A stretch of DNA of 24,000 nt, taken from positions 81,982 through 105,981 of the forward strand of contig CAJUOU010000001.1 of the NCBI GenBank assembly GCA_910588545.1, written 5' to 3'. Source of the DNA: an uncultured Christensenellaceae bacterium (GTDB lineage Bacteria; Bacillota; Clostridia; Christensenellales; UBA3700). The notes below the pieces were generated by a model, which worked only from the letters and a program-made list of their open reading frames with translations, ran no database searches and had not been told where the DNA came from. This document shows positions 1 through 17,043 of this stretch, piece after piece. Position numbers and translations under genes: made by a program. Numbering within the stretch: the stretch's first letter is position 1; each line of letters starts with the position of its first letter.

Positions 1-291
1 AGCGAAGGTAAAGTTTGCGTAACCGAAAGATTGGAAATGGAGGAGTACGCAGAACGCTTGCTTGAAGTTTTGGACGGAAAAATGCAGGATTTTAAAAGCG
101 CATTTGAAATGCAAGACGATGAGAATGCCGTAAAGGAAATTGCAGAAGTAGTAGAAGTGCTTTATGCAGTGCTTAATTTGATTGGGGTTGAAAAAGAGTC
201 ATTTGAGAAAATTCGACTTGCGAAATGCCAAAAGTTCGGTGGATATGATAACAGAGTTTTGTTAAAAGAAGTATTGGAAAAGCAAGATTAG
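1..291 (+). CDS. MazG-superfamily (all-alpha) house-cleaning NTP pyrophosphohydrolase, 5'-truncated by the window edge
   Basis: The reading frame is open from base 1 (SEGKVCVTERLEMEE...), so the gene starts upstream of the window. The C-terminal pattern EIAEVVEVLYAVL...FEKIRLAKCQKFGGYDNRVLL resembles the ElaDvlEvl...K...rGgF...r.L signature of predicted noncanonical NTP pyrophosphatases. Confidence 0.55.
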   Translation, partial: SEGKVCVTERLEMEEYAERLLEVLDGKMQDFKSAFEMQDDENAVKEIAEVVEVLYAVLNLIGVEKESFEKIRLAKCQKFGGYDNRVLLKEVLEKQD

Positions 292-334
292 TAAATTTAC
301 GGATAAAACAAGTAAGTTGTTTGATAGGTGTGAT

Positions 335-808
335 ATGAAAGACGGTTTTGAGCCTGTTTTTGACAGCAATAGCACAATTTTGATTTTGGGGAGTTTTCCA
401 AGTGTACTTTCATTTAAGCAAGGCTTTTATTACGGCAACCCGCGAAATAGGTTTTGGGGACTTATGCAAGAAATTTTCGGCGGACAAATTGACAGTATAC
501 CCAATAAAAAACAGTTAATATTAAATAACAAAATTGCACTTTGGGACATTGTTTTAAACGGCGAAAATATGAATAACGGCAAGGAAAGCAGTAGCGACAG
601 CAATTTAAAATGCGAAATTGTGGCAGATATACCATGGATAATCAAAAACAGCAAAATCAAAAAGGTTATTTGTAACGGCAAAAAAGCGTATGAGTTGTAT
701 TGTAATTATTATCCCGAGCTTGTTGATATAGCAGTGTGTTTGCCGTCTACAAGTCCTGCAAACGTAAGGTTTGATAAGGATAGTTGGGTAAATGAACTAT
801 CAAAATAA
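335..808 (+). CDS. DNA-deoxyinosine (hypoxanthine) glycosylase, uracil-DNA glycosylase superfamily
   Basis: The N-terminal motif FEPVFDSNSTILILGSFPSVLSFKQGFYYGNPRNRFW matches the UDG-superfamily ILGSFPS...YY..p.N.FW pattern. I chose ATG 335 (AGGTG just upstream) over the TTG at 317 in the ORF track. Confidence 0.65.
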   Translation: MKDGFEPVFDSNSTILILGSFPSVLSFKQGFYYGNPRNRFWGLMQEIFGGQIDSIPNKKQLILNNKIALWDIVLNGENMNNGKESSSDSNLKCEIVADIPWIIKNSKIKKVICNGKKAYELYCNYYPELVDIAVCLPSTSPANVRFDKDSWVNELSK

Positions 809-816
809 ACAAAAAA

Positions 817-841
817 ATATCCCTACTTTTGATAGGGATAT
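817..841. terminator. Bidirectional intrinsic terminator between convergent genes
   Basis: A perfect 9-bp stem, ATATCCCTA (817-825) with TAGGGATAT (833-841), encloses a 7-nt loop. It has an A-run upstream and a T-run downstream and lies between the stop at 808 (+) and the stop at 856 (-). Confidence 0.6.
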
Positions 842-855
842 TTTTATATTATAAA

Positions 856-1263
856 TTATTTGTTAAAATCCGCATCCGACATCATATCTGCATTCGGTGC
901 CCATTTGCCTACGCTTGCAATACCGTTTTTACACGATGCTTTGCTTGCATAACCTTCCTCCGAAATGCAAAGTATATTGCCGTTGTTTGCACGCAAGCGG
1001 TAGCGGAACTTGCCTTGTTTATCTTTGTAAATTTCAAATTTAGGATTTGTCAAAGTCTCGTATTTCGAAAGAGTTTGGTCCTCGATTTTATCTATACCGC
1101 CGAATTTGCGTACAGAATCGATTCCGCTTTTGCAACTGCTCAATGTAGTGTAAATACCTTCGCTGACTGCAATAGTCTCCTTATTAGAAGCTTTTAATCT
1201 AAAATTAAAGTTGCCCTTTGGTGTTTTGGAATAAACAAAATATCCTTTTAGTTCGTTTGCCAT
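856..1263 (-). CDS. yegP: YegP family protein (tandem DUF1508/UPF0339 domains)
   Basis: Two repeats have the pattern F.(Y/I)....G.F.FRL.A.NG..I..SEGY.s...C..GI.SV. The start is ATG at 1263 (MANELKGYF) with a GGGAGGAAA RBS upstream. The 47-codon extension to 1404 in the ORF track is AT-rich and lacks an RBS. Confidence 0.8.
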   Translation of the reverse strand: MANELKGYFVYSKTPKGNFNFRLKASNKETIAVSEGIYTTLSSCKSGIDSVRKFGGIDKIEDQTLSKYETLTNPKFEIYKDKQGKFRYRLRANNGNILCISEEGYASKASCKNGIASVGKWAPNADMMSDADFNK

Positions 1264-1379
1264 AAATTTCCTCCCTAGTATATTATAAAAACATATTATC
1301 GTAATTAATATAAGTTTAACATAAAAATCATAGTTTTTCAAGGGGTATAGCAAATAAATAAAAAATTTTTTAACAATGT

Positions 1380-1409
1380 TGAATAAAAGTTTGCAAAAGG
1401 GCAATAATG
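1380..1409 (+). promoter_or_regulatory. Forespore-type (sigma-F/G-like) promoter candidate for spoIIR
   Basis: TGAATA (1380-1385), a 14-nt spacer, then GGCAATAATG (1400-1409). The latter fits the sigma-F -10 pattern GGnnAnAHTR as I recall it from B. subtilis. It lies about 20 nt upstream of the spoIIR start, and spoIIR is sigma-F dependent in B. subtilis. Confidence 0.35.
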
Positions 1410-1428
1410 AACATTGCGGAGGCGTTGT

Positions 1429-1941
1429 ATGAAAAAATTAATAGTTTTGGCAGTTGCATTGGTAATTGCAATAAGCACATTTTGTTTATTAAATCATAAG
1501 GAGAATGATTACTTAAGGATACATATAAGAGCAAACAGTAATAGTGAGTATGACCAACAAATCAAATATCAAGTGAAAGATGCGGTGGTTGAAGCACTTA
1601 AACCTATAGCAAACAATATAAAAAACAAAGAGCAGATGATTGAATTACTAAATGAAAACGTACATCTTTTAACTGCCGTTGTGGATAATAAGCTTAGGGA
1701 GCTTGGACAAAACTATACTTCAACAGTTAAAATTTGCGAGGAAAAATTTCCCACCCGCTCGTATGAGGAGTTGACTTTGGGTGCAGGAGTATACGATGCG
1801 ATTATCATAGAGCTAGGCAGCGGGCAAGGGGATAATTGGTGGTGTGTGGCATACCCTCCTTTGTGTTTTGTGACTGCAGACGGCGACGGCGATAGCATAC
1901 AATATAAATCTATTTTTTCAAAATGGTTTGGTAATCAATAA
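1429..1941 (+). CDS. spoIIR: Stage II sporulation protein R (forespore signal activating pro-sigma-E processing)
   Basis: An N-terminal signal/TM segment is followed by LRIHIRANSNSEYDQQIKYQVKDAV...GDNWWCVAYPPLCF, the characteristic SpoIIR pattern (lRlHViAnSds..DQ..K..VrD...G.NWWCVlfPPLCf). ATG 1429 has a GGAGG RBS 6 nt upstream. Confidence 0.85.
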   Translation: MKKLIVLAVALVIAISTFCLLNHKENDYLRIHIRANSNSEYDQQIKYQVKDAVVEALKPIANNIKNKEQMIELLNENVHLLTAVVDNKLRELGQNYTSTVKICEEKFPTRSYEELTLGAGVYDAIIIELGSGQGDNWWCVAYPPLCFVTADGDGDSIQYKSIFSKWFGNQ

Positions 1942-2069
1942 AATAATTAGTCATTTATGTTTTTGCATAGATGATTTTTTATTTGCATTACACAAAATTT
2001 TCATTTTAAGTTTAAAAGTTTTTAAAATGTGGAAAAATTAATATAAAATCTAAAAAAGGAAGAGAAGTT

Positions 2070-2819
2070 ATGAAAAAAATGGATAAATATCAATTTGTAA
2101 GTTTTTTAAATAAAAACAAATTGTGTATTTGCATAGTTTGTGCTTTTATTGCGCTTGCTTCTTTAACTACAGCTATAGTTTATCCTTTTACTTATAGTAA
2201 TGCGATTGTTGCCGACGGTACGTTGGAGGTCGCTGCAATAAGGCGTGGCGATAGCGGTAGCAAAGTAAAGGAAATTCAACGAAAACTCAATGAATACGGC
2301 TTTAGCGTAGGGGCGGTTGATGGTATTTTTGGTAGCAAAACTTTGCAAGCGGTTAAAAATTTTCAAAAATCACGCGGTTTGGTCGTTGATGGAATTGTAG
2401 GAAATGCGACAGCCAAAGCTTTGGGGATTTCTTTAAGCAATGGTAGCGGCGGTAACAGCAACTACGGTGGCGGAGATGTGTATCTACTTGCCAAAACCAT
2501 ACACGCAGAAGCAAGGGGAGAACCTTATATCGGTCAAGTTGCAGTAGGGGCGGTTGTCTTAAACAGGGTAAAAAGCTCTAGCTTTCCAAACACTATTTCC
2601 GGTGTGGTGTATCAACCTTGGGCTTTCACCGCTGTGCATGACGGACAAATCAATTTAGAGCCTAATGACAGTGCAATGAGAGCAGCAAAAGATGCAATGA
2701 ACGGTTGGGACCCAACAAACGGGTGTTTGTATTACTTTAATCCTGCTACCGCTACAAGCAGTTGGATATGGTCAAGACAGGTTAAATTGACTATCGGTAA
2801 ACACAAATTTGCAATTTAA
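2070..2819 (+). CDS. sleB: Spore cortex-lytic enzyme SleB (PG_binding_1 domain plus SleB/CwlJ hydrolase domain)
   Basis: A peptidoglycan-binding repeat (GDSGSKVKEIQRKLNEYGFSVGAVDGIFGSKTLQAVKNFQKSRGLVVDGIVG) is followed by the hydrolase_2 signature LLAKTIHAEARGEPYIGQVAVGAVVLNRV...VVYQPWAFTAV. An RBS is present, and the gene lies immediately upstream of ypeB as in Bacillus. Confidence 0.85.
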   Translation: MKKMDKYQFVSFLNKNKLCICIVCAFIALASLTTAIVYPFTYSNAIVADGTLEVAAIRRGDSGSKVKEIQRKLNEYGFSVGAVDGIFGSKTLQAVKNFQKSRGLVVDGIVGNATAKALGISLSNGSGGNSNYGGGDVYLLAKTIHAEARGEPYIGQVAVGAVVLNRVKSSSFPNTISGVVYQPWAFTAVHDGQINLEPNDSAMRAAKDAMNGWDPTNGCLYYFNPATATSSWIWSRQVKLTIGKHKFAI

Positions 2820-2828
2820 GGAGAGATT

Positions 2829-4169
2829 ATGGAACTGACAAATAAAAGAAAAACTATAATAATAAGCATAATAATTTTTATGCTACTTGCGGCTGTAATA
2901 ACCTTAAGTGTGTTTGTGGGATTGTACGCAAAAGACAGGCATGATAAGGATAGAGATATAGAGAGCTTCTACCAATCCGCGTATTACGGCTTAGTTGGCA
3001 ATTTTGTGGATATAGAGAATGACCTTGCAAAAGCAAGAGTAATTACGGATAACAAATTATTAAGACAAAACCTTATGAAAATCGATGTTAACTGCAATTT
3101 GGCTAGTCAAAACTTGCAAGTTTTTTATGCAAATAACGAGGGAATGTCAAATTTGATGAACTTTATAAATCAACTTGGCGATTATTGCGGTTATTTAATA
3201 AAGGAGTTGGAAAAAGGTAAAAGTTTAACAATTTCTCAAACAGAAAATTTAAATAAAATGTGGGGCGTTTCCAAAGAGTATGGTAAGCTTTTAAATAGTT
3301 TGCAAGACTATGCAAAGGATGGTACTACTTTGGCAAGATTGCTTGGAACAAGTAATGAGCAGTTTGAAGATATTTTGAGCAATATCGGCAATGGCAGTAT
3401 TGAATATCCGTCCCTAATATATGACGGACCATTTAGTGACGGTATATTAAACAGAGAGGCAAAAGGTATCGTAGGAGAGGAAATATCCGCTGACCAAGGC
3501 AAAGTTTTGGTGGAAAAATATCTTGTCGGCTATGATATTGAAAACATTGAGTACTCTCAAGACAGCGTAAATAGGATTGACAGTTATTTGTATGCGGTAA
3601 AACTTAAAGGCGGTAGACAATGTTCGGTGCAAATTGCAAAAAAAGGCGGATTATTGTTGCTTATGGACTTATTTCACGAAGTTGTAGAGCCAAGTTTGAC
3701 TATTGAACAGTGTCAAAAGGTAGCAGAACAATATTGCGATTCAATAGGGCTTAAAAATATGAAAGCTGTTTGGATAAACAATAATCAAAGCAATGTTTAT
3801 ATTAATATGTGTTATGAACAGGACGGCATTGTAAACTATGCAGATATGGTTAAGATAAAAATAAGTTTGGATACAGGCGAGGTTATCGGTTATGAGGGGT
3901 TGAACTATGCTTTTAACCATGTAACAAGAGTATACGATACTCCTATAGTAAGTGAAGAACAAGCCGTATTGAATGTTTCCGCTATTTTAGACAATATAGA
4001 ATGTAGATTGGTCACAATCCCTTGGAATGTCACTGCCGAAAAGGTTGCTTATGAAATCGTGGGCGAGCTTGACGGCGAAAAATATTTCGTTTATATCGAT
4101 GCTTATAACGGCGACGAATTAAATGTATTGAGAATGATTGATAGTAATCAAGGCGATTTGCTAATGTAA
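2829..4169 (+). CDS. ypeB: Germination protein YpeB (SleB partner, PepSY-type C-terminal repeats)
   Basis: It has an N-terminal membrane anchor, the YPSLIYDGPFSD motif typical of YpeB, and C-terminal PepSY-like repeats. The start is 9 nt after the sleB stop with an AGGAGA RBS, matching the conserved sleB-ypeB operon. Confidence 0.85.
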   Translation: MELTNKRKTIIISIIIFMLLAAVITLSVFVGLYAKDRHDKDRDIESFYQSAYYGLVGNFVDIENDLAKARVITDNKLLRQNLMKIDVNCNLASQNLQVFYANNEGMSNLMNFINQLGDYCGYLIKELEKGKSLTISQTENLNKMWGVSKEYGKLLNSLQDYAKDGTTLARLLGTSNEQFEDILSNIGNGSIEYPSLIYDGPFSDGILNREAKGIVGEEISADQGKVLVEKYLVGYDIENIEYSQDSVNRIDSYLYAVKLKGGRQCSVQIAKKGGLLLLMDLFHEVVEPSLTIEQCQKVAEQYCDSIGLKNMKAVWINNNQSNVYINMCYEQDGIVNYADMVKIKISLDTGEVIGYEGLNYAFNHVTRVYDTPIVSEEQAVLNVSAILDNIECRLVTIPWNVTAEKVAYEIVGELDGEKYFVYIDAYNGDELNVLRMIDSNQGDLLM

Positions 4170-4235
4170 AACACTAAACAACAGCCAATATTTGACTAGA
4201 TTGTGAATGCGACAACATTAAAATAATATAAAAAT

Positions 4236-4264
4236 ACACCCCGAAACATTTAGTTTTGGGGTGT
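4236..4264. terminator. Bidirectional intrinsic terminator downstream of ypeB
   Basis: A 12-bp stem, ACACCCCGAAAC (4236-4247) with GTTTTGGGGTGT (4253-4264), contains one G-U pair and a 5-nt loop. An A-run lies upstream and TGCTTTTTG downstream. Confidence 0.7.
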
Positions 4265-4375
4265 TGCTTTTTGTGTAAAGTTTAAAGTAGGCAAAAAGTG
4301 CCGTTCACTGCAATAATCCTATCAAAAATCGGGACTATTGGGGGTAAAAAATTGCCGTTAATGTAAAGTTTGGGT

Positions 4376-4401
4376 ACATGGAATAAGTATATCTATGTAC
4401 A
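4376..4401 (+). repeat. Left inverted repeat (IR-L) of the candidate invertible element
   Basis: ACATGGAATAAGTATATCTATGTACA. Its reverse complement recurs at 4523-4548 with a single mismatch (4380 versus 4544), and the perfect core is 21 bp (4381-4401). Confidence 0.85.
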
Positions 4402-4413
4402 TATTATATGTAT

Positions 4414-4443
4414 ATTTTAAACTAAAAAGTAAGATAATGTCAA
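4414..4443 (-). promoter_or_regulatory. Near-consensus sigma-A promoter inside the invertible segment, currently reading away from the surface-protein gene
   Basis: On the minus strand: TTGACA (4443-4438), an 18-nt spacer, then TAAAAT (4419-4414). In this orientation transcription runs toward the bidirectional terminator at 4236-4264. After inversion it would start about 55 nt upstream of ATG 4572. Confidence 0.5.
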
Positions 4444-4522
4444 CGTTATGATAAAGGTTTTGTAAACTCTTTACTTTAAGCATACAAAAATTATATATTC
4501 AAACTCAAAAAATCCTCGATTT

Positions 4523-4548
4523 TGTACATAGATATACTTATTCTATGT
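4523..4548 (-). repeat. Right inverted repeat (IR-R) of the candidate invertible element
   Basis: TGTACATAGATATACTTATTCTATGT is the reverse complement of IR-L with one mismatch. It ends 24 nt before the RBS and ATG of the downstream gene. Confidence 0.85.
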
Positions 4549-4571
4549 TAGACAAAAACGGAGGTTTTATT

Positions 4572-7500
4572 ATGGCAAAGATAATAAAAAGAGCGGGAAT
4601 GATATTTTTTGTGTCAGTAATATCTTGTCTAATAGCTTTGGGCTGCGTAATAACAATGCAAGTTACGGAAAGTAGCAATAACGGCATTGTAAATGCAGAC
4701 ACACAAAATAACATTTATACTAGCCAAAATAATGAGGACAGTAGTTATACTGTACCAAAGGCGGAGGTGCCCGAAGTACCAAAGTCGGACTATGAGTATG
4801 AATTGGGACATAAGGCAAATTGTACAAACCAAACAACTTGTACTTGTATGCAGGATATATGGAACAGTGCGGTACAAAAATCTTTGGATACAGGCAAAAA
4901 TGTAAAAGTAACTTTATTAAACGATTGGATTGCCTCTACCGATGATGCAATGCATAAATTGGGAACGGGAATTGGATTTGTCAGTCAAGATGGTACATTA
5001 CATATTCCTCTAAATGCAGAGATTACTTTGGATTTGAACGGACATGATATAGACAGAAAATTCGATGCAAGCAATGCTATACCCGGAGGTTTAATTTTTA
5101 GATTTCAAGGTACTTTGAATCTTGTGGACAACAAATATAATACTGTTGAAATAGAAAATATCTACAATCAAACCAAAGGCAATAAAGATAATTTTGTGTC
5201 TGCTTTAAATAACTATAAAGCCGGTCAAATACGCGGAGGTGGCAGAAGTGAGAATTCCGGCGGAGCAATAGTTTTGGACCCGGGTGCAGTTTTAAATATG
5301 TATGGCGGTATTATAACAGAAAACTATGCATTTGTTTCAGGCGGTGCTATTTGTTCAACAAATGGTACAAAAGTTAATATTTATGACGGAGTAATAACAA
5401 ATAATTATTCCAATAGAGTTGGTGGATTGTTTATTCAAGACGATATCGATATTTATGGCGGAATAATTGCATACAATCACGATTTGATTGAAGAAAATGT
5501 AGTAAATCAAGCGGGCGGAATGTATGTGATTTCTCCTACTGCGGATGTAAACATTTACGGAGGAAAAATCACTCACAATACATCTACGGGCAGAGCAGGC
5601 GGAGTTTATTTTCATAATGCAAACAAAGTAAATATTTATGATTGCGATATAAGCTATAATCAAGCAGGCAGCTACGGAGGTGGTATATATTCAAGAACTG
5701 TCAACGAGTTTAATTTTTACAATGGTAAAGTTAACTACAACACTACTGAAGCTGACGGCGGAGGAATGATTTTGTATTTGACAAAGGTTGTACGTATATA
5801 CGATGGACAAATCAATAACAATACCGCAAGTTATGGCGGCGGTATAAAAATTGACTCTGTCGAAGATGCGTATTTATATGGTGGAGAGATAAGTGGTAAT
5901 GTCGGTGACAATGGTGGCGGAATATATGTAAACTGTCGGTTGTATTTGAAAGGTGGAACTATAGTAAATAATATTGCCGAAAATGGTGGAGGTATTTATG
6001 TAGCCGGAAAAGTCTCCTTAGGTGCAGGAACACAAGTTTATGGCAATAAATTAAAAACAAATGCCGAATCGGATATATTGTTACATAATGGAACTAAACT
6101 CCAAATATTTGAAAAATTAGGTACTGATTCAAAAACAACCCGTGTAGGAGTTGCTTTAGCTAGTGATTACGGTAGTGGATATTTTACATCAGGCTATAAG
6201 TATTTTAACGAATCGGCAACTTCTATTTCTCCGTCGGTTTATTTCTTCTCGAATGCAAGCAACACAAGTGTAGTTTTAGACGGAGAAGATTTGAAAATGA
6301 GTACAGGAACAAAACCGACTGCGACATGCGATTGGATAATTTCCAACAAAGGTACGGAAGAAAGGTTTAATAAAGATAATGTTATAAGAAAAACTTATAA
6401 TGGCTCGATATTTACTATTTCAAATTCAAAAGGTGCATTTTATATCGGGGGCAGTTATAATACATCAATAAATTCATATACGCAAGCTTTAAATGTTGGA
6501 GAATACGCTTTTTATACAAAAGAAAATGTGACAAATCCTGTATTTACGTTAATAATTGAACCAAAACAAGTGGATTTGGAGTGGCAAACAATTTTAACAT
6601 ATAACGGAACTGTTCAAAGTCCTATAGCAAATGTGGCAGAAAATGAAATCTTAAACTTAGACAGCTGTAATGTTTTAGTAGATGGCAGTGCAATAAATGT
6701 TGGTACCAATTACTATGCAACTGCAATAAGTTTGCAAAATATCAATTACAAAATTAATCCATTGACAAAAAGCACGACTTATAAAATATTACCTGCAGAA
6801 CTCGAAATAAATATTTCAACAAACGATAAAAGTGCTGTATATAGCGGACAGGAAATTAAACTTGATAAATGGTTTAGCGTGAGTGCAACTTTACTTGGCA
6901 ATGATAAATTGAAACCATTAACTAATGTATTTAATATAGACTACAGCAAAATAGTGCCACAGTTTACAAAGGATGGAATAACAACGGATAGTGTTATCAA
7001 TGTAGGAGAGTATGCAATAAGCGTAAAACCGTTTGATGTCAGCAAAGTGTTTAGCGGTAATAGCAACTACAATGTAACGGTAAATTATGTAAACGGAGGA
7101 ACGCTTACAGTAAGTGAGGCAAATGTCATAAGACCAACAGCAGAGTCTAAATACGATTATTTGATATTAGAGGGAGATAAGAGAGTAAGTTATAAAGACA
7201 AAGGCTTGATACACGGGGATAATGACAGTAATGTAAATGTAGTAGATGGAAAAGCAAACTACTATATGGGAAACATAAGCCCAAATACAAGTGTAAATAA
7301 ATTTATAAGCAACTTGGTATACGAAAAAACACAAATACAAATCTACAACAGCAAAGGCACAATAATCTATGACAAAGGCAACGCAAGCGTAAATGAGGAG
7401 CTGTTGAATAATGGAAAAGAGTTGGAAGTAGGAACAGGTTGGTATATAGAGTACAGCAAAGACGGAGAAACAGAAAGAATAACCTTATCCGTACTAGGCG

Positions 7501-7703
7501 ACGTAAACGGAGATGGTAGGATAAGCGCAAGCGATGTTACATACCTAAGACAAATAGCAAGTGACAACGCGTTATACGAAAGCTTAAGCGTGGAAAAGAA
7601 ACTAGCAAGTATGGTAATAAACAAAGGTAATGTGACAAGTGCAGATGCGGAAATAGTAAGAAATGTTGTGGATAAATTGCTTACAATGAACTTATTTTTT
7701 TAA
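4572..7703 (+). CDS. Large secreted/cell-surface protein: N-terminal signal anchor, right-handed beta-helix region with GG(A/G)I(Y/F) Pmp/PbH1-type repeats, MBG-like repeats, C-terminal type I dockerin
   Basis: ATG 4572 (MAKIIKRAG...) has a GGAGG RBS, and the upstream ATG 4545 lies inside IR-R without an RBS. About 12 repeats of the form NIYGG.I..N.a..GGGIY span roughly 5230-6110. YNG...NVGEY...NY motifs (MBG-like) span roughly 6370-7120. Dockerin EF-hand-like repeats (GDVNGDGRISASDVTYLRQ and NKGNVTSADAEIVRNV) occupy 7497-7700. Confidence 0.8.
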   Translation: MAKIIKRAGMIFFVSVISCLIALGCVITMQVTESSNNGIVNADTQNNIYTSQNNEDSSYTVPKAEVPEVPKSDYEYELGHKANCTNQTTCTCMQDIWNSAVQKSLDTGKNVKVTLLNDWIASTDDAMHKLGTGIGFVSQDGTLHIPLNAEITLDLNGHDIDRKFDASNAIPGGLIFRFQGTLNLVDNKYNTVEIENIYNQTKGNKDNFVSALNNYKAGQIRGGGRSENSGGAIVLDPGAVLNMYGGIITENYAFVSGGAICSTNGTKVNIYDGVITNNYSNRVGGLFIQDDIDIYGGIIAYNHDLIEENVVNQAGGMYVISPTADVNIYGGKITHNTSTGRAGGVYFHNANKVNIYDCDISYNQAGSYGGGIYSRTVNEFNFYNGKVNYNTTEADGGGMILYLTKVVRIYDGQINNNTASYGGGIKIDSVEDAYLYGGEISGNVGDNGGGIYVNCRLYLKGGTIVNNIAENGGGIYVAGKVSLGAGTQVYGNKLKTNAESDILLHNGTKLQIFEKLGTDSKTTRVGVALASDYGSGYFTSGYKYFNESATSISPSVYFFSNASNTSVVLDGEDLKMSTGTKPTATCDWIISNKGTEERFNKDNVIRKTYNGSIFTISNSKGAFYIGGSYNTSINSYTQALNVGEYAFYTKENVTNPVFTLIIEPKQVDLEWQTILTYNGTVQSPIANVAENEILNLDSCNVLVDGSAINVGTNYYATAISLQNINYKINPLTKSTTYKILPAELEINISTNDKSAVYSGQEIKLDKWFSVSATLLGNDKLKPLTNVFNIDYSKIVPQFTKDGITTDSVINVGEYAISVKPFDVSKVFSGNSNYNVTVNYVNGGTLTVSEANVIRPTAESKYDYLILEGDKRVSYKDKGLIHGDNDSNVNVVDGKANYYMGNISPNTSVNKFISNLVYEKTQIQIYNSKGTIIYDKGNASVNEELLNNGKELEVGTGWYIEYSKDGETERITLSVLGDVNGDGRISASDVTYLRQIASDNALYESLSVEKKLASMVINKGNVTSADAEIVRNVVDKLLTMNLFF

Positions 7704-7743
7704 TAAATCGAAGCAACATTAAATATTATTAAACAAGTAAAAG

Positions 7744-7775
7744 CAGCAAAGAGAAGTTGTTAACTCTCTTTGCTG
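7744..7775 (+). terminator. Intrinsic terminator of the surface-protein gene
   Basis: An 11-bp stem, CAGCAAAGAGA (7744-7754) with TCTCTTTGCTG (7765-7775), is followed by TTTGCTATTGTT, about 40 nt after the stop codon. Confidence 0.6.
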
Positions 7776-7924
7776 TTTGCTATTGTTCTATTAGCTATAA
7801 AATACTTATAAACTTGGGTTTTAAAGAGGTTTTGCGATTTTTGAAATATAATAGTATAAAAATAAATTATGGAAAATATAACAAATTGAAAAATCAAAAA
7901 TAACTAAAAATTTACTAAAAAAGA

Positions 7925-7953
7925 TTGAAAAAGTACAAATAAAATGTTATCAT
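7925..7953 (+). promoter_or_regulatory. Sigma-A promoter candidate for the DUF1846 gene
   Basis: TTGAAA (7925-7930), a 17-nt spacer, then TATCAT (7948-7953) preceded by TGT (extended -10 TGnTATCAT). It sits about 100 nt upstream of ATG 8056. Confidence 0.45.
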
Positions 7954-8055
7954 ATTATAGTAAGCTATTTGGAGTTTAATCGGATTAAATTTAATTACAT
8001 ATTAGTTTAATACAATAAACCAAAAGAAAGGAAAAATTTGCTAAAGAGGTTTGTT

Positions 8056-9534
8056 ATGGAATACGGTTTTGATAATGAGAAATATGTCAAAATGCAAAAA
8101 GAAAATATCTTAAAAAGAATCAGTCAATATGACAAGTTGTACCTTGAATTCGGTGGCAAGTTATTTGACGATTGGCATGCAGCGAGGGTATTGCCCGGTT
8201 TTGATGTAAATGCTAAAGTTAAACTATTGGTTACATTAAAAGATAAAGCCGAAATCATCATTGCAATCAGTGGCGAAGATTTGGCTCGAAATAAGATTAG
8301 GGCAGATTACGGCATAGGCTACGATGCCGACGTAATGCGCTTGATTGACAATATGAGAGAGCTTGGCATTTATATAGGCAGTATTGTTATAACTAAATAT
8401 GAGGGACAGCCATCTGCCGATTTGTTTAAAACAAAAATGGAACGTAGGGGAGAAAAAGTTTATATTCATACAAAAACAAAAGGTTACCCTACGGATATAA
8501 ATACAATTATCAGTGACGAGGGATATGGTAAAAACCCTTATATCGAAACAACAAGACCGTTGGTTGTGGTTACTGCACCCGGTCCCGGCAGCGGAAAGCT
8601 TGCAACTTGTTTGGGACAATTATATCATGAGTATAAAAGGGGAAATCGTGCAGGATATGCTAAGTTTGAAACATTTCCTATTTGGAATTTACCTTTAAAA
8701 CACCCTGTAAATGTTGCGTATGAGGCTGCAACAGCCGATTTAAAGGATGTTAATATGATTGACCACTTCCATTTGGAAAAATACGGTGTCAGCACAGTAA
8801 ACTATAATCGTGATATCGAGGTATTCCCTGTAGTAAGAACTATTTTGGAGAGGATAACAGGACATTGTCCTTACTGCTCGCCGACTGAAATGGGTGTAAA
8901 TATGGCAGGATTTGCAGTTAGTAATGACGAAATCGTTCAAAAGGCTGCAAAACAAGAAGTTATACGCAGATATTACAAAGCTTGTTGCGATTATTTACAA
9001 GGCAATGGGGATATTTCTACAAAGGAAAAAATAGAGCTTTTGATGGGCGATTTAGGGATTACCCCGGATGATAGAAAGGTTGCGGTAATTGCAAGAGAAA
9101 AGTCCAACGATTGCGGAGTACCTGTTGTGGCATTGGAACTGCCAAACGGTAAAATAGTAACAGGTAAAAAATCCAACTTACTTTCGGCATCTTCCGCTGT
9201 ACTGCTAAATGCTATTAAAGAGCTTGCAAACATTAGTGACGATATAAATTTGATTTCCCCACTTACAATCGAACCTATTTTGAAAATGAAAAAGGAGCTT
9301 TTGAAAGAAAAATACGATTTCTTGACATTGGAGGAAATGTTAATTGCATTATCTATCGGTGCGGTAACAAATCCTACAGCTGCAAAAGCAATGTCCAAAG
9401 TTAAAGAGTTGTTTGGATGTGAAGCACACGGCAGTTGTATACTACCTGTTACGGACGAAACTGTTATCAAAAAACTTGGTATTAACATAACAACAGAAGC
9501 AGTTTTTGGAAGTAACAATCTATATAATTTGTAA
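8056..9534 (+). CDS. DUF1846/UPF0371 family protein (conserved, function unknown)
   Basis: The N-terminus GFDNEKYVKMQKENILKRI...LYLEFGGKLFDDWHAARVLPGF and the overall length of about 490 aa match the UPF0371 family as I recall it. ATG 8056 with an AAGAGG RBS is preferred over TTG 8038. Confidence 0.7.
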   Translation: MEYGFDNEKYVKMQKENILKRISQYDKLYLEFGGKLFDDWHAARVLPGFDVNAKVKLLVTLKDKAEIIIAISGEDLARNKIRADYGIGYDADVMRLIDNMRELGIYIGSIVITKYEGQPSADLFKTKMERRGEKVYIHTKTKGYPTDINTIISDEGYGKNPYIETTRPLVVVTAPGPGSGKLATCLGQLYHEYKRGNRAGYAKFETFPIWNLPLKHPVNVAYEAATADLKDVNMIDHFHLEKYGVSTVNYNRDIEVFPVVRTILERITGHCPYCSPTEMGVNMAGFAVSNDEIVQKAAKQEVIRRYYKACCDYLQGNGDISTKEKIELLMGDLGITPDDRKVAVIAREKSNDCGVPVVALELPNGKIVTGKKSNLLSASSAVLLNAIKELANISDDINLISPLTIEPILKMKKELLKEKYDFLTLEEMLIALSIGAVTNPTAAKAMSKVKELFGCEAHGSCILPVTDETVIKKLGINITTEAVFGSNNLYNL

Positions 9535-9698
9535 TAATTTTGATAAAAACTTATCAAAAATCGGTATTAAAATTTATATACTATAAAAAACATTTAATTA
9601 AACAGTAAAAAACTATTTGGTTTGCAGTTTAATTTATTAGATATTAAATATACATAAAAACAGAAAAGATAAAAAATTTAAATGAGGAGAACCTATTG

Positions 9699-10856
9699 AT
9701 GGTAACTGAAGAAATCTTTAAGATTAGTGAAGTAAAAGATGTGGATTTGGCTGTATTGCCTACAGAAGGTGCAAAAGAACTTGCTAAAATGGTGGATAAA
9801 TATTTGGTGCAATGGTATAACGAAGCTGCTGAAAAAAGCAACTTGCCAAAAAAAGATACTTTTTTGATTAACAGTAAATGCCCAAGATTTACTACCGGCG
9901 ACGGAAAAGGAATTATAAATGATTCCGTAAGAGGTAAGGATTTATTTTTCATTTGCGATGTCGGTAATTACAGCATAGAATATACTATGTTCGGCACTCC
10001 TAACAGAATGTCTCCGGATGACCATTATTGCGATTTGAAAAGACTTATTTGCGCAAACGCAGGCAAAGCAAGACGTATGACGGTTATAATGCCTATTTTA
10101 TATGGTGGCAGACAACACAGAAGAAACAGCCGTGAGTCTTTGGACTGTGCACAAATGCTTAAAGAGCTTGAGTCAATGGGAGTAACTGATATAATCACTT
10201 TTGATGCTCATGACCCAAGAGTACAAAATGCAGTGCCGGAAATGGGATTTGACAACTTTTTTGCTACATACCAAATTTTAAAAGCATTGCTAAAGGAATA
10301 TCCTCAAGTTAACTTGGGCAAAAACCATTTTATGATAGTCAGCCCTGACGAGGGTGCAATGGGAAGAAATATCTACTATTCATCCGTGCTTGGCATCAAC
10401 TTGGGTATGTTCTACAAACGTCGCGATTATTCTACTATCGTAAACGGACGTAATCCTATCGTTAGTCACGAGTATATCGGTAACGATGTTAAAGGTATGG
10501 ATATTTTTGTTGCAGACGATATTATTGCAACAGGCGATAGTATGTTGCATCTTTGCAAGGAACTTAAGGAAAGAGGTTGTAAAAACATATTTATTACAGC
10601 AACTTTTGCATTGTTTACCGAAGGAGTGGAAAAGTTTAACAAAGCTTACGAAGAGGGCTTGTTTACAGCGGTATTGTCCACAAATTTGACTTATACCCCT
10701 GAAATTGTTAAAAACTGCAAATGGTTTATAAGTGCAGATATGTCAAAATTTATCGCAAATATCATTGCAACCTGCAATCAAGACAAGTCTGTTTCGACTT
10801 TGCTTGACCCACACGACAAAATCAATGATATGCTTATTAATAGCGGCATAAAATAA
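9699..10856 (+). CDS. prs: Ribose-phosphate diphosphokinase (PRPP synthetase), long approximately 385-aa form
   Basis: It carries a PRPP-synthetase N-terminal domain, the motif RRMTVIMPILYGGRQHRR...ITFDAHD, and a PRPP-binding loop DIFVADDIIATGDSM. A GAGGAG RBS lies upstream, and the start could instead be TTG 9696. Confidence 0.75.
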   Translation: MVTEEIFKISEVKDVDLAVLPTEGAKELAKMVDKYLVQWYNEAAEKSNLPKKDTFLINSKCPRFTTGDGKGIINDSVRGKDLFFICDVGNYSIEYTMFGTPNRMSPDDHYCDLKRLICANAGKARRMTVIMPILYGGRQHRRNSRESLDCAQMLKELESMGVTDIITFDAHDPRVQNAVPEMGFDNFFATYQILKALLKEYPQVNLGKNHFMIVSPDEGAMGRNIYYSSVLGINLGMFYKRRDYSTIVNGRNPIVSHEYIGNDVKGMDIFVADDIIATGDSMLHLCKELKERGCKNIFITATFALFTEGVEKFNKAYEEGLFTAVLSTNLTYTPEIVKNCKWFISADMSKFIANIIATCNQDKSVSTLLDPHDKINDMLINSGIK

Positions 10857-12057: not shown

Positions 12058-13560
12058 ATGGTAGATTTAACCTATTTAACACTCAGGGATATGTATAGAA
12101 TGCCGATAGGAAAATTACGTGACGTTGCGGCATATTTGGGAGTTGAATCTCCTACCACTTTATCAAAAAGCGAACTTGTAGAAGTAACCTATAAGGCTAA
12201 ATGTGGTGTTGATATAGATAATATTCCTGTAAGGAGAGGTCGTCCGACAAAGCCAGCCAAAGGGGAGTATTCAATCGATTGGGACAATGTTCCCGAGAAA
12301 AATTGGACTTCGGAACAAATTGGCGAAAGTTTAGGAAAATTTTCGAAATTTAATGACAATGTGGCCGGATACGATATACAGGATTCAAATGATAAACGCG
12401 CTGCAAACGACAATTCCGATTTGACTAATATTATCGAACTTGGTTATTTGGAAATTATGGATGATGGCTACGGATTCACACGTTCCACTTATGGAAAAAA
12501 TAACGATGCTTATGTTTCTTCAAGGCTTATTCGTACTGTAGGATTGCGTAAAGGCGATGTTTTGACAGGAACTGCAAGAGCACAATATGAGGGTAAACCT
12601 TATGCTGTTGTAAATGTTTCGAGAATAAACGGAATGCCTGTTGCGGCGCTTACGCAAAGACCGCGTTTTGACGAGCTAACACCCATTTATCCGGACCAAA
12701 TGCTAAGATTGGAGAAAGACAAATCTAAAAATAGCGATATTACTATGCGAATGATAGATTTGATTTGTCCTATCGGTAAAGGGCAAAGGGCACTTATCGT
12801 AGCACCCCCTAAAGCAGGTAAAACTACGATTATCAAAAAAATCGCATCCAATATAATGAATAACAATCCTAACATTATGTTATTTACATTGCTTATCGAC
12901 GAGCGTCCGGAGGAAGTTACCGATATGCAACGTAGCGTTCCTGGAGAGGTTATTTATTCGACTTTCGACGAAACCGCAGAAAATCATATAAAAGTTGCCG
13001 AAATGCTTATCGAACGTGCAAAAAGACAGGTAGAAGTTGGTGCTGATGTAGTGATTATTATGGATAGTTTGACAAGACTTGCCCGAGCATATAACACTGT
13101 TACCGAGTCGAGCGGCAAAACTTTATCTGGTGGTATTGACCCGAAAGCATTGCATTTCCCTAAGAAATTTTTTGGTAGTGCAAGAAAAATCGAGCATGGC
13201 GGAAGTTTGACTATTATAGCAACAGCTTTGGTTGAGACGGGTAGTCGTATGGACGATGTTATTTTTGAAGAGTTTAAGGGTACAGGTAATTTAGAGTTAA
13301 GGCTTGACAGAAAATTATCCGAAAAAAGGATTTTCCCTGCTATAGATTTGGAAAAATCGTCTACAAGACGTGATGATTTGCTACTTACTCAAAAAGAGCT
13401 TGAGGCAAGTATCGCACTTCGTACACTGCTAGCAAATAACGAGCAGGAGGCAACAAAAATATTTATTAATTTATTGTTAAAAACAAAGAACAATAAAGAA
13501 CTTTGCGAACAACTGCTTTTGCAATATCGTGCATCCGAGAAAAATGATTTTCAAATGTAA
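12058..13560 (+). CDS. rho: Transcription termination factor Rho, with an approximately 75-aa N-terminal insertion
   Basis: Motifs present are Walker A (APPKAGKT), LLIDERPEEVTDM, DSLTRLARAYN, GGSLTIIATALVETGSRMDDVIFEEFKGTGN and KRIFPAID. The N-terminal domain is interrupted between about aa 51 and 126 relative to E. coli Rho. Confidence 0.95.
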   Translation: MVDLTYLTLRDMYRMPIGKLRDVAAYLGVESPTTLSKSELVEVTYKAKCGVDIDNIPVRRGRPTKPAKGEYSIDWDNVPEKNWTSEQIGESLGKFSKFNDNVAGYDIQDSNDKRAANDNSDLTNIIELGYLEIMDDGYGFTRSTYGKNNDAYVSSRLIRTVGLRKGDVLTGTARAQYEGKPYAVVNVSRINGMPVAALTQRPRFDELTPIYPDQMLRLEKDKSKNSDITMRMIDLICPIGKGQRALIVAPPKAGKTTIIKKIASNIMNNNPNIMLFTLLIDERPEEVTDMQRSVPGEVIYSTFDETAENHIKVAEMLIERAKRQVEVGADVVIIMDSLTRLARAYNTVTESSGKTLSGGIDPKALHFPKKFFGSARKIEHGGSLTIIATALVETGSRMDDVIFEEFKGTGNLELRLDRKLSEKRIFPAIDLEKSSTRRDDLLLTQKELEASIALRTLLANNEQEATKIFINLLLKTKNNKELCEQLLLQYRASEKNDFQM

Positions 13561-13584
13561 AATTTAAAAAGTTAATTTTATTAA

Positions 13585-13617
13585 ATAACTTCAATGTAAT
13601 ATTGGAGTTATTTTTTA
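13585..13617 (+). terminator. Intrinsic terminator of rho
   Basis: A 10-bp stem, ATAACTTCAA (13585-13594) with TTGGAGTTAT (13602-13611), has one G-U pair and is followed by TTTTTT. Confidence 0.6.
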
Positions 13618-13763
13618 TGATTATTTTATTTTGCACTTAATTTTTAGAATTCTTATTTAGGTTTAAAAATAAAAATCGTTCAATAAGCAGAGTAGTTTGT
13701 TGGTATATATTCATATCTGCATATCAACATACGATTATATAAAAATTTGTAATAACCGTACAA

Positions 13764-13795
13764 AAATCGGGATTAAAATCATTTAATCCCGATTT
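13764..13795. terminator. Perfect 14-bp hairpin, a likely bidirectional terminator between convergent rho and the DUF4363 gene
   Basis: AAATCGGGATTAAA (13764-13777) pairs with TTTAATCCCGATTT (13782-13795) around a 4-nt loop. It has an A-run upstream and a T-rich stretch downstream, and it carries the dispersed CAAAAATCGGGATTAAA motif on both arms. Confidence 0.5.
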
Positions 13796-13878
13796 GTTTA
13801 TATAAATATATCAAAATATAATAATATGCAGATATTTGCAAATGAACATTATTACAAAGTTAGATATAAACTAATTGT

Positions 13879-14259
13879 TTAAAAAATGTTTTTAGGTGCA
13901 AATTTCAAAAGTCCTAATCTGGTTTTTGCATCTTGCTCAAGTGACAAACTTATTGATAGAGCATCTTGATAATTTTCTGCATAAATTGCACCGTGAAGAG
14001 AAGCTAAATTAGTCATAAAGTCTTTTATTTCATTGTGCGGACAGGTAAATTCCAGCACATTTCGCCTTTTATTCCACCACTCGACGCTGTCTTTTGCAAG
14101 TGCCTTGGCAGTTTCGTAGTCATGAACTTCGATATGCTTTCTTATTTCTACACAGCGAACACTTATTTCGTTAAAGGAATTGTGGATGTATACTTCATTT
14201 AGTATTCCAAAGGTTAAAATAAGCACAACTACAACAATAGCTATTATAATTCTATTCAT
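13879..14259 (-). CDS. DUF4363 family protein (single N-terminal TM helix)
   Basis: An N-terminal TM segment (MNRIIIAIVVVVLILTFGIL) is followed by a helical domain with the W-N/K-R motif (VEWWNKRRNVLE). The start overlaps the upstream DUF421 stop by 8 nt with a GGAGGT RBS. The DUF421-DUF4363 pairing is common in Clostridia. Confidence 0.6.
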   Translation of the reverse strand: MNRIIIAIVVVVLILTFGILNEVYIHNSFNEISVRCVEIRKHIEVHDYETAKALAKDSVEWWNKRRNVLEFTCPHNEIKDFMTNLASLHGAIYAENYQDALSISLSLEQDAKTRLGLLKFAPKNIF

Positions 14260-14962
14260 TTACTACCTCCTTAACGCTAGTGTTTATAGCAGGCTTTTTG
14301 ATTGGTTGTAAAAATACATTTTCGTTATTATCTACTGATGCCATAAGCACATTTTTTTGTTTTAAGTCGTATTTTTGCAAAAGTTTATCAATAAAATCAT
14401 TGCGTATGCCTGATAGCTGCATATTTTGAGATAAAATTTTTCCTTCGCAAATAAGCACATAAGGGATGCCTTTCGGGTCTGTCTTTATGCCCATATCGGC
14501 AGGAGTAAGCGGTGCGTTTTCTGCTTTAGGCACAACTGTTAAGTCTCCGTTTGTTTCTACTATTGCATACTGCACCTCGCTAGGGGAAAAGTATCCGCAT
14601 CCTCTGAGCGATTCCAAAAGGTCGTTTACAGTCATATCCAATTTGCTTATTGCATCGTAGTTTATACCATTTGAATCGATTATAATAATTGGTTTACCAT
14701 TTATTACACGTCTGATTTTTATAGAATGTTTAATAATTTTTGTCAATATCAAATGTATGACAAACAGCGTGAAAATCGGTATTAAACCATAAAAAATAGG
14801 CACGGTTGTATCCGACATCGGTATGCAGGCAAGTTCTGCCGCTACCAATGTCACTGCAAATTCGAACGGTTGTAATTCTCCTAATTGCTTTTTGCCCATA
14901 AGTCGCATTGCAAAAAGCAAACAAATATAAATTATTATTGCACGAGTAAATACTATTAACAT
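14252..14962 (-). CDS. DUF421 (YetF/YdfS-like) membrane protein
   Basis: RLMGKKQLGELQPFEFAVTLVAAELA plus a C-terminal soluble domain is typical of YetF-family proteins. The start is ambiguous. ATG 14962 gives a family-typical N-terminus. GTG 15004 (the ORF track start) directly abuts a terminator hairpin. Neither has a good RBS. Confidence 0.7.
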   Translation of the reverse strand: MLIVFTRAIIIYICLLFAMRLMGKKQLGELQPFEFAVTLVAAELACIPMSDTTVPIFYGLIPIFTLFVIHLILTKIIKHSIKIRRVINGKPIIIIDSNGINYDAISKLDMTVNDLLESLRGCGYFSPSEVQYAIVETNGDLTVVPKAENAPLTPADMGIKTDPKGIPYVLICEGKILSQNMQLSGIRNDFIDKLLQKYDLKQKNVLMASVDNNENVFLQPIKKPAINTSVKEVVNE

Positions 14963-15012
14963 ATTTTTAGTATTTGAAAGATTTGCAGTTTTATACGTAT
15001 ACACAAAATTAA

Positions 15013-15040
15013 AAAAGTGCTTTTGAGTAAGAGCACTTTT
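15013..15040 (-). terminator. Intrinsic terminator after the spoVB-like gene
   Basis: The stem is AAAAGTGCT (15013-15021) with AGCACTTTT (15032-15040). On the minus strand it is followed by TTTTTTAATTTT. It lies 44 nt downstream of the stop at 15084. Confidence 0.6.
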
Positions 15041-15083
15041 TTGTTGTTCATTTTTTAATTTGATATAATTAAAGATAATTTGT

Positions 15084-16577
15084 TTATTTATTTTCGCTAG
15101 TTATTTTATTTTTCTTCTTGTAATACAAAAAAGTAGGCAATGCAAATGTAGCGGAAAGCAATGTGGATATTATCGAAGTAATGCTTATCCTTGCGAATAT
15201 GCTTAGATTGCTGTAACTTAAGGAAATTAATTTTGACAAAAATCCTACGCCGATAGACAGCCCGAAAGTAGTAAAGCAAACAATCAAGTATTTAAGTGAA
15301 ACCGCAGTACATTTTTTTAGTTTTATTGTATTGATAATCAAGCCGATAGTGTGATATACGAGAAGAGCTGCGGGATATGCGTAAATGCCGATAGGTTTTG
15401 CAAATAAAACCAGCGTTATAATCAAACCGACCGAAGATACTATGCTTGCCCAAAAAGTTGTTTTTTCATTGCCCAATGTGTTTAGCAGTGAAACAGTTAG
15501 TTGATTTATTACAAGCGGGATAATAATCATGGCTGTTATTACAAGCATTTTTCCGGCTTTTTCGTCGCGGTAAAACAAGACCGAAATATCTTCTCCCGCA
15601 CCTATAAATATTGACATTAAAAATGCGGAAATTATTGCTGTAAATACCATTGAGTAACCTATTTTGCCGTTTGCTGCACTTTTACCTTGTTTTGCTACTT
15701 GGCTTGAAATTTCAGGTATCATTATAACAAGTAACGAGCCGATTATAGTATTCGGTGCAAGCGCGATTGGCAAAACCATACTGCTCATTCTGCCGTAATC
15801 GGCAGTTGCCATATCCATGGAGATTCCGCTGTGTACCAATAAGCTAGGTAACATAAGCGCGATTACCGAACTCATAAGCGAGCCGATTATTCTAGTAGTT
15901 GTTATAGGCAGTGACGAAGTTGTAATTTCGGCAGCGTAGTTAGGTCTTTTCATTTTTCCGCCAAAAGCTATAAACATTATTACTATAATAATCATGCAAA
16001 ATACATCGCCTAGCACATTTGCCAATGCAAAAGCGTTGTATGGCTCGCTTACATAAAATTTAGTTAGCCAAACTATAAGCACTCCGACAAGCAAAAAGGC
16101 CTCGTCAGCAAACTCCAAAAGCGAATATGTAGTGTACTTTTTCTTTCCCCAAAACCATGCTCTGAAAGTAGCGTAAATGGCTGTGGAAATAAGTGTCGGC
16201 GATAGTATGCGAAAAACTTCACGACATTTGGGATTTGAAAACAGCAAGTTTAACGACGACGGAAATACATTGAAAAACAAACATATCAAAGTAGATATTC
16301 CCGCTGTAATAAGCAATGTTGAGGCAAGTATACTATTTGAATGGTCAAAGTCCCCAAGTGCATCGTAATGTGCTATTTTTCGTGATAGTGTAACAGGAAA
16401 ACCGCTTGCCGCGAAACATGCAAACATTACAAAAACCGAACTCGCTATGGAATAAATACCAATATTCAATGCTCCGAATATTCGTGACAAATATATATGG
16501 AAAATAAAAGAAACGAGCCTTGTAATTATACTTATAGAAGTAACTTTAAAAAAAGATTTTACGAAGTTATTAGCCAT
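15084..16577 (-). CDS. spoVB: MOP-superfamily polysaccharide/lipid II flippase, SpoVB-like
   Basis: It is a multi-TM protein (about 14 helices) of about 497 aa. The N-terminus FVKSFFKVTSISIITRLVSFIFHIYLSRIFGALNIGIY is typical of SpoVB/MurJ/Wzx family members. ATG 16577 has an AAAGGAG RBS. The spoVB assignment rather than a generic flippase is inferred from the sporulation context. Confidence 0.6.
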   Translation of the reverse strand: MANNFVKSFFKVTSISIITRLVSFIFHIYLSRIFGALNIGIYSIASSVFVMFACFAASGFPVTLSRKIAHYDALGDFDHSNSILASTLLITAGISTLICLFFNVFPSSLNLLFSNPKCREVFRILSPTLISTAIYATFRAWFWGKKKYTTYSLLEFADEAFLLVGVLIVWLTKFYVSEPYNAFALANVLGDVFCMIIIVIMFIAFGGKMKRPNYAAEITTSSLPITTTRIIGSLMSSVIALMLPSLLVHSGISMDMATADYGRMSSMVLPIALAPNTIIGSLLVIMIPEISSQVAKQGKSAANGKIGYSMVFTAIISAFLMSIFIGAGEDISVLFYRDEKAGKMLVITAMIIIPLVINQLTVSLLNTLGNEKTTFWASIVSSVGLIITLVLFAKPIGIYAYPAALLVYHTIGLIINTIKLKKCTAVSLKYLIVCFTTFGLSIGVGFLSKLISLSYSNLSIFARISITSIISTLLSATFALPTFLYYKKKNKITSENK

Positions 16578-16666
16578 ATTGCTCCTTTTGTCGTTTAATT
16601 TCTTTATCCTTATATCATATTGCATAAAAACTAAAAATAGAATAGAAAGGAAAGGAGAGTGTGCTT

Positions 16667-16960: not shown

Positions 16961-16997
16961 AAAGTGCATTTAAATTTTGCCATTTACCTAAAAATTA

Positions 16998-17026
16998 GCA
17001 TATTGCAAAAGGCTTGGACATAAAAT
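16998..17026 (+). promoter_or_regulatory. Sigma-E-like mother-cell promoter candidate for the spoIIIA operon
   Basis: GCATATT (16998-17004), a 14-nt spacer, then CATAAAAT (17019-17026). This compares with the B. subtilis sigma-E consensus as I recall it (kmATATT-N14-CATACA-T). It lies 18 nt upstream of the ATG 17044 and overlaps the TTG start (17014) given in the ORF track. Confidence 0.4.
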
Positions 17027-17043
17027 TTAGCGTGGAGGTTGAT

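Follow-up and report, generated by a model that had tools for sequence, protein, structure and literature searches.

Promoter invertons, short invertible DNA segments that carry a promoter, are well known in Bacteroidota and in a few pathogens. Here we describe an element at positions 4376-4548 of a 24,000-nucleotide stretch (hereafter the window) of contig CAJUOU010000001.1 from an uncultured Christensenellaceae bacterium. The element is located between the ypeB gene (2829-4169) and a large open reading frame (ORF) starting with the ATG at 4572, and we interpret it, with a probability of about 0.87, as a promoter inverton, one of about 30 such modules, which gates the expression of a secreted protein with a dockerin tail. 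The first-pass annotation of the window had recognised the switch and its left and right inverted repeats (IR-L and IR-R); the family of about 30 copies, the extension of the module to about 140 nt left of IR-L and the prevalence of the OFF orientation had escaped it.

Among the described systems, fimS of Escherichia coli is a single site with the recombinases FimB and FimE encoded alongside, a sigma-70-type promoter directed into an adhesin gene and a strong OFF bias; the element measures 314 bp and is bounded by 9-bp inverted repeats (IRs). The present element is likewise a short promoter segment that would read into a gene in one orientation, with a bias to OFF, but it differs from fimS in its 26-nt IRs, its 121-nt segment, the lack of an adjacent recombinase gene and its about 30 copies. 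The RecV switches of Clostridioides difficile (cwpV/Cdi1, flgB/Cdi4, cmr/Cdi6, and others) comprise seven sites with mostly unrelated IRs and segments of 154-230 bp. They share with our locus the class Clostridia, small intergenic segments in front of surface or motility genes and a recombinase that acts, here presumably, in trans on several sites, whereas the about 30 sites described here have an identical 21-nt core. Inversion at cwpV reportedly causes orientation-dependent termination downstream of a fixed promoter; in our case, in contrast, the promoter is located inside the segment and the segment contains no terminator.

In its organisation the system is closest to the Mpi regulon of Bacteroides fragilis and to the IR-sharing groups of Akkermansia, in its taxonomy to the RecV switches. 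In the Mpi regulon, a master recombinase of the serine type serves at least thirteen regions (PMC5903667). Common to both systems are dispersed promoter invertons with one shared IR and, putatively in our case, a recombinase that is not linked to them and a role in surface architecture. Unlike in the Mpi regulon, the promoter is of the Firmicutes sigma-A type (TTGACA/TATAAT), the IR, GTACATAGAATAAGTATATCTATGTAC, is unrelated to the known Mpi consensus, the whole module including a 110-nt flank and the signal peptide is near-identical in about 30 copies, and the cargo consists of single paralogous protein genes instead of polysaccharide operons. Groups of this kind in A. muciniphila and other gut commensals are known from PhaseFinder-type surveys. 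In A. muciniphila ATCC BAA-835, 32 invertons of one IR-motif group are located beside surface-related genes (PMC11892184); similarly, the motif described here is common to a group within one genome, namely 30 promoter switches of one type. In a survey of a defined gut community, the median for Clostridia-like Firmicutes was 3 invertons per genome.

The vsa, vsp and vpma systems of Mycoplasma diversify paralogous surface lipoproteins with conserved N-terminal signal regions and variable bodies by site-specific inversion, which brings silent genes to one expression site. The present family is also large and has a conserved N-terminal signal and variable bodies, but each of its members possesses an invertible promoter of its own. 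Gene shuffling of the shufflon or vsa/vsp type was considered and rejected, since the inverted DNA consists of 121 non-coding nucleotides and every paralog has its own switch. A search of the available literature returned nothing for this IR sequence and nothing on dockerins in combination with an invertible promoter or phase variation. The mechanism of a promoter inverton is known; its scale and cargo here appear to be undescribed for Firmicutes.

Inversion of the segment in natural populations

An exact look-up of the YpeB sequence yielded ten contigs from different samples (stretches retrieved for comparison are numbered with the prefix L). Two of them from independent metagenome assemblies, L002 (SRR10593851) and L006 (SRR10593861), have the same YpeB sequence as the window and agree with it at every base as far as 4401; from there, positions 4402-4522 are exactly reverse-complemented, with 0 mismatches to an in silico inversion, and both contigs stop inside IR-R. 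The orientation of the window is present in L001, L005, L097, and L098. At a second locus, represented by L052 and L090, the flanks are identical at 170 of 171 and 218 of 221 positions, and the segments are reverse complements of each other over 121 of 121 nt. Site-specific inversion with breakpoints at the IRs occurs in natural populations at these two loci, and the invertibility proposed in the first-pass annotation is borne out by the two orientations of orthologous loci in public assemblies (L002 and L006 versus the window, L001 and L005).

The two comparisons also delimit the site of exchange. The G at 4380 remains with the left flank after inversion in L002 and L006, and the innermost base of the IR, which is polymorphic between L052 and L090, moves with the segment; therefore, strand exchange is bounded to 4381-4400, centred on a spacer at 4383-4391. 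Many assemblies break within or at the switch, and other contigs stop at or shortly before the module. Contig ends at the switch are expected from mixed orientations or from repeated sequence, and three contigs of metagenome-assembled genomes (MAGs) end at the equivalent of window position 4297 because the module is repeated.

The occurrence of the module in many copies, and the fact that the orientations stem from different samples and not from one clone, would also fit a dispersed repetitive element, similar to a miniature inverted-repeat transposable element, whose orientations reflect rare RecA-mediated or historical rearrangements fixed per strain. We regard this as the least likely of the alternatives that we weighed, because at the window locus the flanks of flipped and unflipped copies are identical to the base, which makes the flip recent, because the breakpoints coincide precisely with the IRs at two loci, and because assemblies break at the switch as mixed populations predict. 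Moreover, the module is found at a fixed distance from the start of a paralog with a ribosome-binding site (RBS), the aligned flanks show no target-site duplication, and the IR, which resembles a recombinase core site, is invariant across lineages whose segments have diverged by about 30%. A length of 26 nt is also marginal for RecA-dependent recombination.

The recombination site and the putative promoter

The two IRs of 26 nt each are 96% complementary (one mismatch), lie 121 nt apart and form the best short-range inverted repeat of the window. Their perfect 21-nt core, GAATAAGTATATCTATGTACA, is found at 4381-4401 and 4523-4543 and, with up to 3 mismatches allowed, nowhere else in the window, 0.00 matches being expected from 100 shuffles. 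In IR-L, two dyad arms of 9 nt each, GTACATgGA (4374-4382) and TCTATGTAC (4392-4400), enclose the asymmetric 9-nt spacer ATAAGTATA. This dyad, already described in the first-pass annotation for each IR, was confirmed and is invariant across 47 diverged copies, and recomputation reproduced the positions given there for IRs, core, promoter, terminator, RBS, and ATG. An odd-length 9-9-9 site with an asymmetric centre is more reminiscent of the core sites of tyrosine recombinases than of serine invertase sites with their 2-bp crossover. The single mismatch between the IRs (G at 4380, A at 4544) recurs in nearly every copy of the lineage of the window in an alignment of the cassettes, and about half of the diverged representatives have G at the IR-L position equivalent to 4380; at the level of these alignments the difference is a conserved asymmetry between the two sites. 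A mechanically called ORF start, ATG 4545, falls inside IR-R; all paralogs begin at the equivalent of 4572, behind GGAGG, so that IR-R does not overlap the coding sequence.

To recover further copies, the 21-nt core was scanned over one genome per species (43 stretches) and a metagenome collection (43 more), and 73 complete copies were obtained. TTGACA-18-TAAAAT, on the minus strand of the segment, is the best sigma-70-like match (11/12) in the region 4100-4700. TTGACA-18-TA(T/A)AAT is present at the same position in 73 of the 73 complete switches, and among 12 representatives with less than 90% identity the two hexamers with their fixed spacing are the only invariant blocks inside the segment. 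On both strands of 4100-4700, the terminator scan identified a single terminator-like element, the hairpin at 4236-4264, and none within the segment. These results agree with the earlier placement of the best promoter inside the segment. In the OFF orientation, the plus-strand promoter candidates are weak and differ among subtypes. The distance from the end of the IR core to the ATG of the following ORF, which encodes 500-1200 amino acids (aa), is 27-30 nt in nearly all copies, too short to accommodate a promoter between IR-R and the RBS. After inversion in silico, the -10 hexamer is located at 4505-4510, transcription would start at about 4517 and the leader would measure about 55 nt, in agreement with the first-pass arithmetic; the GGAGG motif precedes ATG 4572 by 7 nt. 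The coordinates are listed in Table 1.

Table 1 Positions of the switch elements and the adjacent gene in the 24,000-nucleotide window
Feature	Position	Strand	Remarks
Intrinsic terminator (hairpin 4236-4264 and T-run)	4236-4272	+	Left edge of the module; terminator scan
Conserved left flank	4273-4375	.	77 copies, 48 representatives with <88% identity
IR-L	4376-4401	+	Recombination site; 26 nt
-10 hexamer TAAAAT	4414-4419	-	TATAAT in other subtypes; 18 nt from -35; directed away from the gene as sequenced
-35 hexamer TTGACA	4438-4443	-	Invariant in 73/73 complete switches and 12 diverged representatives
Invertible segment	4402-4522	.	121 nt; exact reverse complement in L002 and L006
IR-R	4523-4548	-	Partner recombination site; would supply the 5' part of the mRNA leader when ON
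RBS GGAGG and ATG	4560-4564, ATG 4572	+	Conserved in the paralog family (alignment of 41 cassettes)
Gene under putative control of the switch	4572-7703	+	1043-aa secreted protein, possibly a lipoprotein; one of about 30 paralogs

At the sequence level, the promoter of the segment is directed toward the neighbouring gene in just one of the two orientations. Four complete copies have this orientation in the consensus assemblies; in all others, about 95% of the assembled copies, the promoter points the other way. The gene-facing copies are L002 and L006 at the window locus and the orthologous pair L038 and L052, which precedes a distinct 564-aa dockerin protein. A variable surface repertoire would show such a pattern, with most copies OFF and few ON, and a recombinase with a bias to OFF would also fit.

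We propose that a recombinase encoded elsewhere would exchange strands within the 21-nt cores, at 4381-4400 and most likely at the 9-nt spacer, and would thereby flip the 121-nt segment with its single predicted strong sigma-A promoter (TTGACA-18-TAAAAT). As sequenced, this promoter would fire leftward into the conserved flank and the terminator, leaving the gene at 4572 OFF; in the flipped state, transcription would proceed from about 4517 through IR-R and the GGAGG RBS, and the 1043-aa protein would be expressed. With about 30 modules, most of them OFF and few ON, the outcome would be a combinatorial phase or antigenic variation of the cell surface, which is the biological role that we infer.

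Alternatively, a fixed promoter in the left flank, for example the extended -10-like TGCAATAAT at 4309-4317, might drive the gene, with the segment acting as an orientation-dependent attenuator as in cwpV. This motif is located on the plus strand and conserved in most lineages, a candidate with a TG motif, TAGGCA-18-AATAAT, is among the hits of the promoter scan, and the left flank is under constraint. Attenuation of the cwpV type, however, would call for a hairpin followed by a T-run, which the segment contains on neither strand; the TG and parts of the TGCAATAAT motif are missing in L014, L054, L059, and L062, all of which retain the switch; and what is invariant inside the segment is precisely one -35 and one -10 hexamer, 18 nt apart. 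We therefore judge a fixed flank promoter to be highly unlikely and prefer the promoter inverton.

The module, its left flank and the paralog family

The MAG CANSGN01 contains 60 cores, equivalent to 30 switches, and its fragmented sister MAG CAJTYW01 25 cores; thus, many dispersed switches with one common IR are present in a single genome, as in the Mpi regulon. The module consists of the terminator, a flank of about 110 nt, IR-L, the segment, IR-R, the RBS, and the signal peptide, in this order. The start-to-start spacing of the IRs is 142 nt in nearly all complete copies and 141-143 nt overall, so that the length of the segment is constant to within 1 nt.

Several loci depart from this scheme. 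Orphan switches with the full left flank and the promoter, but without RBS or paralog, are found at L014:5653-5815, L036:3508-3670, and L069:2176-2338; they are located 120-170 nt 5' of a gene for a RarA/MgsA-like AAA ATPase, an arrangement kept in at least three assemblies. The copy at L078:3276-3446 is a fossil: IR-R is absent, whereas the left flank, IR-L and most of the segment are retained, so that the switch is locked. At L047:5218-7468, two switches 2088 nt apart with identical left flanks surround the gene for a 509-aa membrane-anchored protein; the segment of the second switch belongs to a diverged subtype, and the protein encoded behind it has an N-terminus of another class (MSNSKIKF...). 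The 509-aa ORF was tried as a recombinase candidate and gave no Pfam match. In L096, an insert of 261 nt (1510-1770; 43% GC), unique among the loci fetched, separates the switch from a paralog gene on the minus strand (232-1464); the IR-R sequence ACATAGATATACTTAATACATGTACA is directly repeated at its borders, a picture that resembles the insertion of an element into the recombination site. A 410-aa ORF beside this orphan-looking switch, considered as a new recombinase, proved to be another paralog of the family, and an Rfam search of L096 and L075 returned nothing beyond sub-threshold noise.

The terminator is present 5' of every copy, and its stem shows compensatory changes between lineages (CG, GC, AT, and TA pairs). 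It had been described as bidirectional, which holds for the lineage of the window and not for the sister lineage CAJTYW, where the plus-strand T-run is kept and the minus-strand T-run is not. Because the latter is not conserved, the conserved role of the terminator would be insulation from read-through from upstream (ypeB) rather than ending of the OFF transcript. Within the flank, three blocks are invariant in 48 representatives: GTGTAAAGTTT (4273-4283), a block at 4309-4333, which reads TGCAATAAT-C-CTATCAAAAATCGGG in the window and (TG)CAATAAT-N-CTATCAAAAATCGGG across the representatives, and AATGTAAA (4360-4367). RNAalifold, applied to 47 diverged copies on both strands, detected the terminator and the IR dyad and no conserved structure in the flank, and an Rfam search of 4150-4650 gave only sub-threshold noise. 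A local stem formed by AATAATCC and GGACTATT, which had suggested a structured RNA in the left flank, was discarded, as it is not kept in the sister lineage. Since there is neither a conserved RNA structure nor an Rfam match, the conservation of the flank appears to act at the level of the DNA, and the blocks may be candidate sites for accessory or arm-type proteins.

Two further observations concern these blocks. The hexamer TGTAAA occurs three times in the same direction in the OFF state, at 4273-4283 and 4360-4367 in the flank and at 4459-4467 in the segment, and is conserved at all three places across subtypes. CTATCAAAAATCGGG resembles the Hin half-site TTATCAAAAACC; the dyad partner is absent, however, and no claim is based on this resemblance.

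The same data bear on the possibility that the leftward transcript is the main product, a regulatory RNA of about 170-180 nt whose active state is the common orientation. The promoter is directed into the conserved flank in about 95% of the assembled copies, and the flank is bounded, in the lineage of the window, by a hairpin with a T-run on either side. Yet the flank shows no conserved secondary structure or covariation on either strand, and no match in Rfam, and inspection revealed no small ORF with an RBS that is conserved. In addition, the CAJTYW lineage lacks the minus-strand T-run of the terminator, and about 30 near-identical copies of one small RNA would be redundant. A regulatory RNA as the main product is thus even less likely than a fixed promoter in the flank, and a switch acting on the downstream gene is favoured.

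The protein encoded downstream of the switch has a hydrophobic N-terminal signal with a possible lipobox (by inspection), GGxI/N-rich repeats and a C-terminal type I dockerin, matched by Dockerin_1 at residues 975-1031 (23.7 bits versus a cutoff of 22.9) and weakly by the dockerin chain of PDB entry 2ccl. Dockerin_1 was also matched in 21 of 25 paralogs tested, down to E = 1e-8. The paralogs have a common N-terminus (MAKIIKRAGIVFFVLVIS...), a variable body and a common dockerin tail; each switch heads a different paralog, and every paralog has its own switch. L098 has a different paralog of 740 aa with a weak Beta_helix match at the position of the window gene. Homology of this contig to the window covers 2148-4630 and resumes at 7401, with flanks that are otherwise about 99% identical. 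The differing body (window 4630-7401 versus L098:2484-4346) is enclosed by the conserved signal peptide on one side and the dockerin tail on the other, which looks like a cassette replacement or a gene conversion within the family. L099 and L100 (1-3875) contain the DUF1846 neighbourhood with a 491-aa gene and without a switch; their upstream genes are unrelated (HTH_3, Pyridox_ox_2, DNA methylase, HNH), and the two contigs are homologous to the window only from 6930 onward, within the surface-protein gene.

Recombinase, host and biological meaning

No recombinase was found by Pfam in the sizeable ORFs of the window or in the annotated neighbourhoods within 10 kb beyond either end, nor by phmmer in about 750 kb of ORF pieces around about 100 other copies (L001-L104), with Hin and XerD sequences as queries and with Pfam on selected ORFs, so that a very divergent enzyme could escape. 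Because none was found in the window, in its flanks or near the other copies, the recombinase would act in trans, as the first-pass annotation had also supposed, and the absence of a linked gene is consistent with one unlinked enzyme, possibly a single master recombinase.

Several points weigh against a promoter inverton that switches the adjacent gene. No serine or tyrosine recombinase was found in the regions just named; the two orientations come from different samples, from which switching within a clone is extrapolated; promoter activity and the ON/OFF assignment are deduced from a consensus match and its conservation; the model does not account for the conserved flank blocks; and the extended -10-like TGCAATAAT on the plus strand could add transcription that is independent of orientation.

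With spoIIR, sleB, and ypeB on the 5' side of the switch and a DUF1846 gene, prs, rho, and the spoIIIA operon on the 3' side (Pfam, window ORFs), the host is a spore-forming member of the Clostridia; the G+C content is 34%. Several related MAGs carry MGBC isolate names, which we take to refer to the Mouse Gastrointestinal Bacteria Catalogue and hence to a mouse-gut origin. Contig CAOTNX010000007.1 (MAG GCA_948531805.1) differs from the window by one base in the 21.8 kb compared (1-10808 and 13045-24000). An exact look-up of the surface protein of the window gave no match, probably owing to this single-base difference, which lies within 1-10808. Just upstream of the window, L105:2836-9613 encodes two alpha-L-fucosidases, a WG-repeat protein and a GH98 enzyme, which suggests a forager on host glycans or blood-group glycans. 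Between rho and a convergent DUF4363 gene, nested inverted repeats at 13713-13835 (29-nt arms at 76% and a 19-nt hairpin at 13759-13800) probably represent a terminator region; the hairpin has AAAAATCGGGA in common with a flank block of the switch.

Taken further, the data would describe a mouse-gut spore-former with the largest uniform promoter-inverton regulon so far encountered in the Firmicutes, in which one unlinked recombinase acts on about 30 modules and alters a mostly silent repertoire of dockerin-tailed, beta-helix-like surface (lipo)proteins on a cohesin scaffold, with the flank blocks GTGTAAAGTTT, CTATCAAAAATCGGG, and AATGTAAA serving as accessory sites. We offer this picture tentatively, its chances being a little short of even. 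One recombinase would have to tell local from distant partners among 60 identical sites; if the picture is true, accessory flank sites would limit synapsis to the local IR pair and bias the switches to OFF, and 60 identical sites could coexist without scrambling of the chromosome because synapsis is restricted in this way. The system would be convenient for experiments, as it offers a fixed 27-nt recombination site, a 121-nt segment and conserved flank blocks that can be mutated. The module also accounts for the recurrent breaks in MAG assemblies of this lineage, and its sequence can be used as a tag to profile phase states in the reads of gut metagenomes. To judge from their dockerin tails, the proteins may be displayed on a cohesin scaffold; if this is true, cohesin-dockerin display would serve phase or antigenic variation of the cell surface and not only the degradation of polysaccharides.

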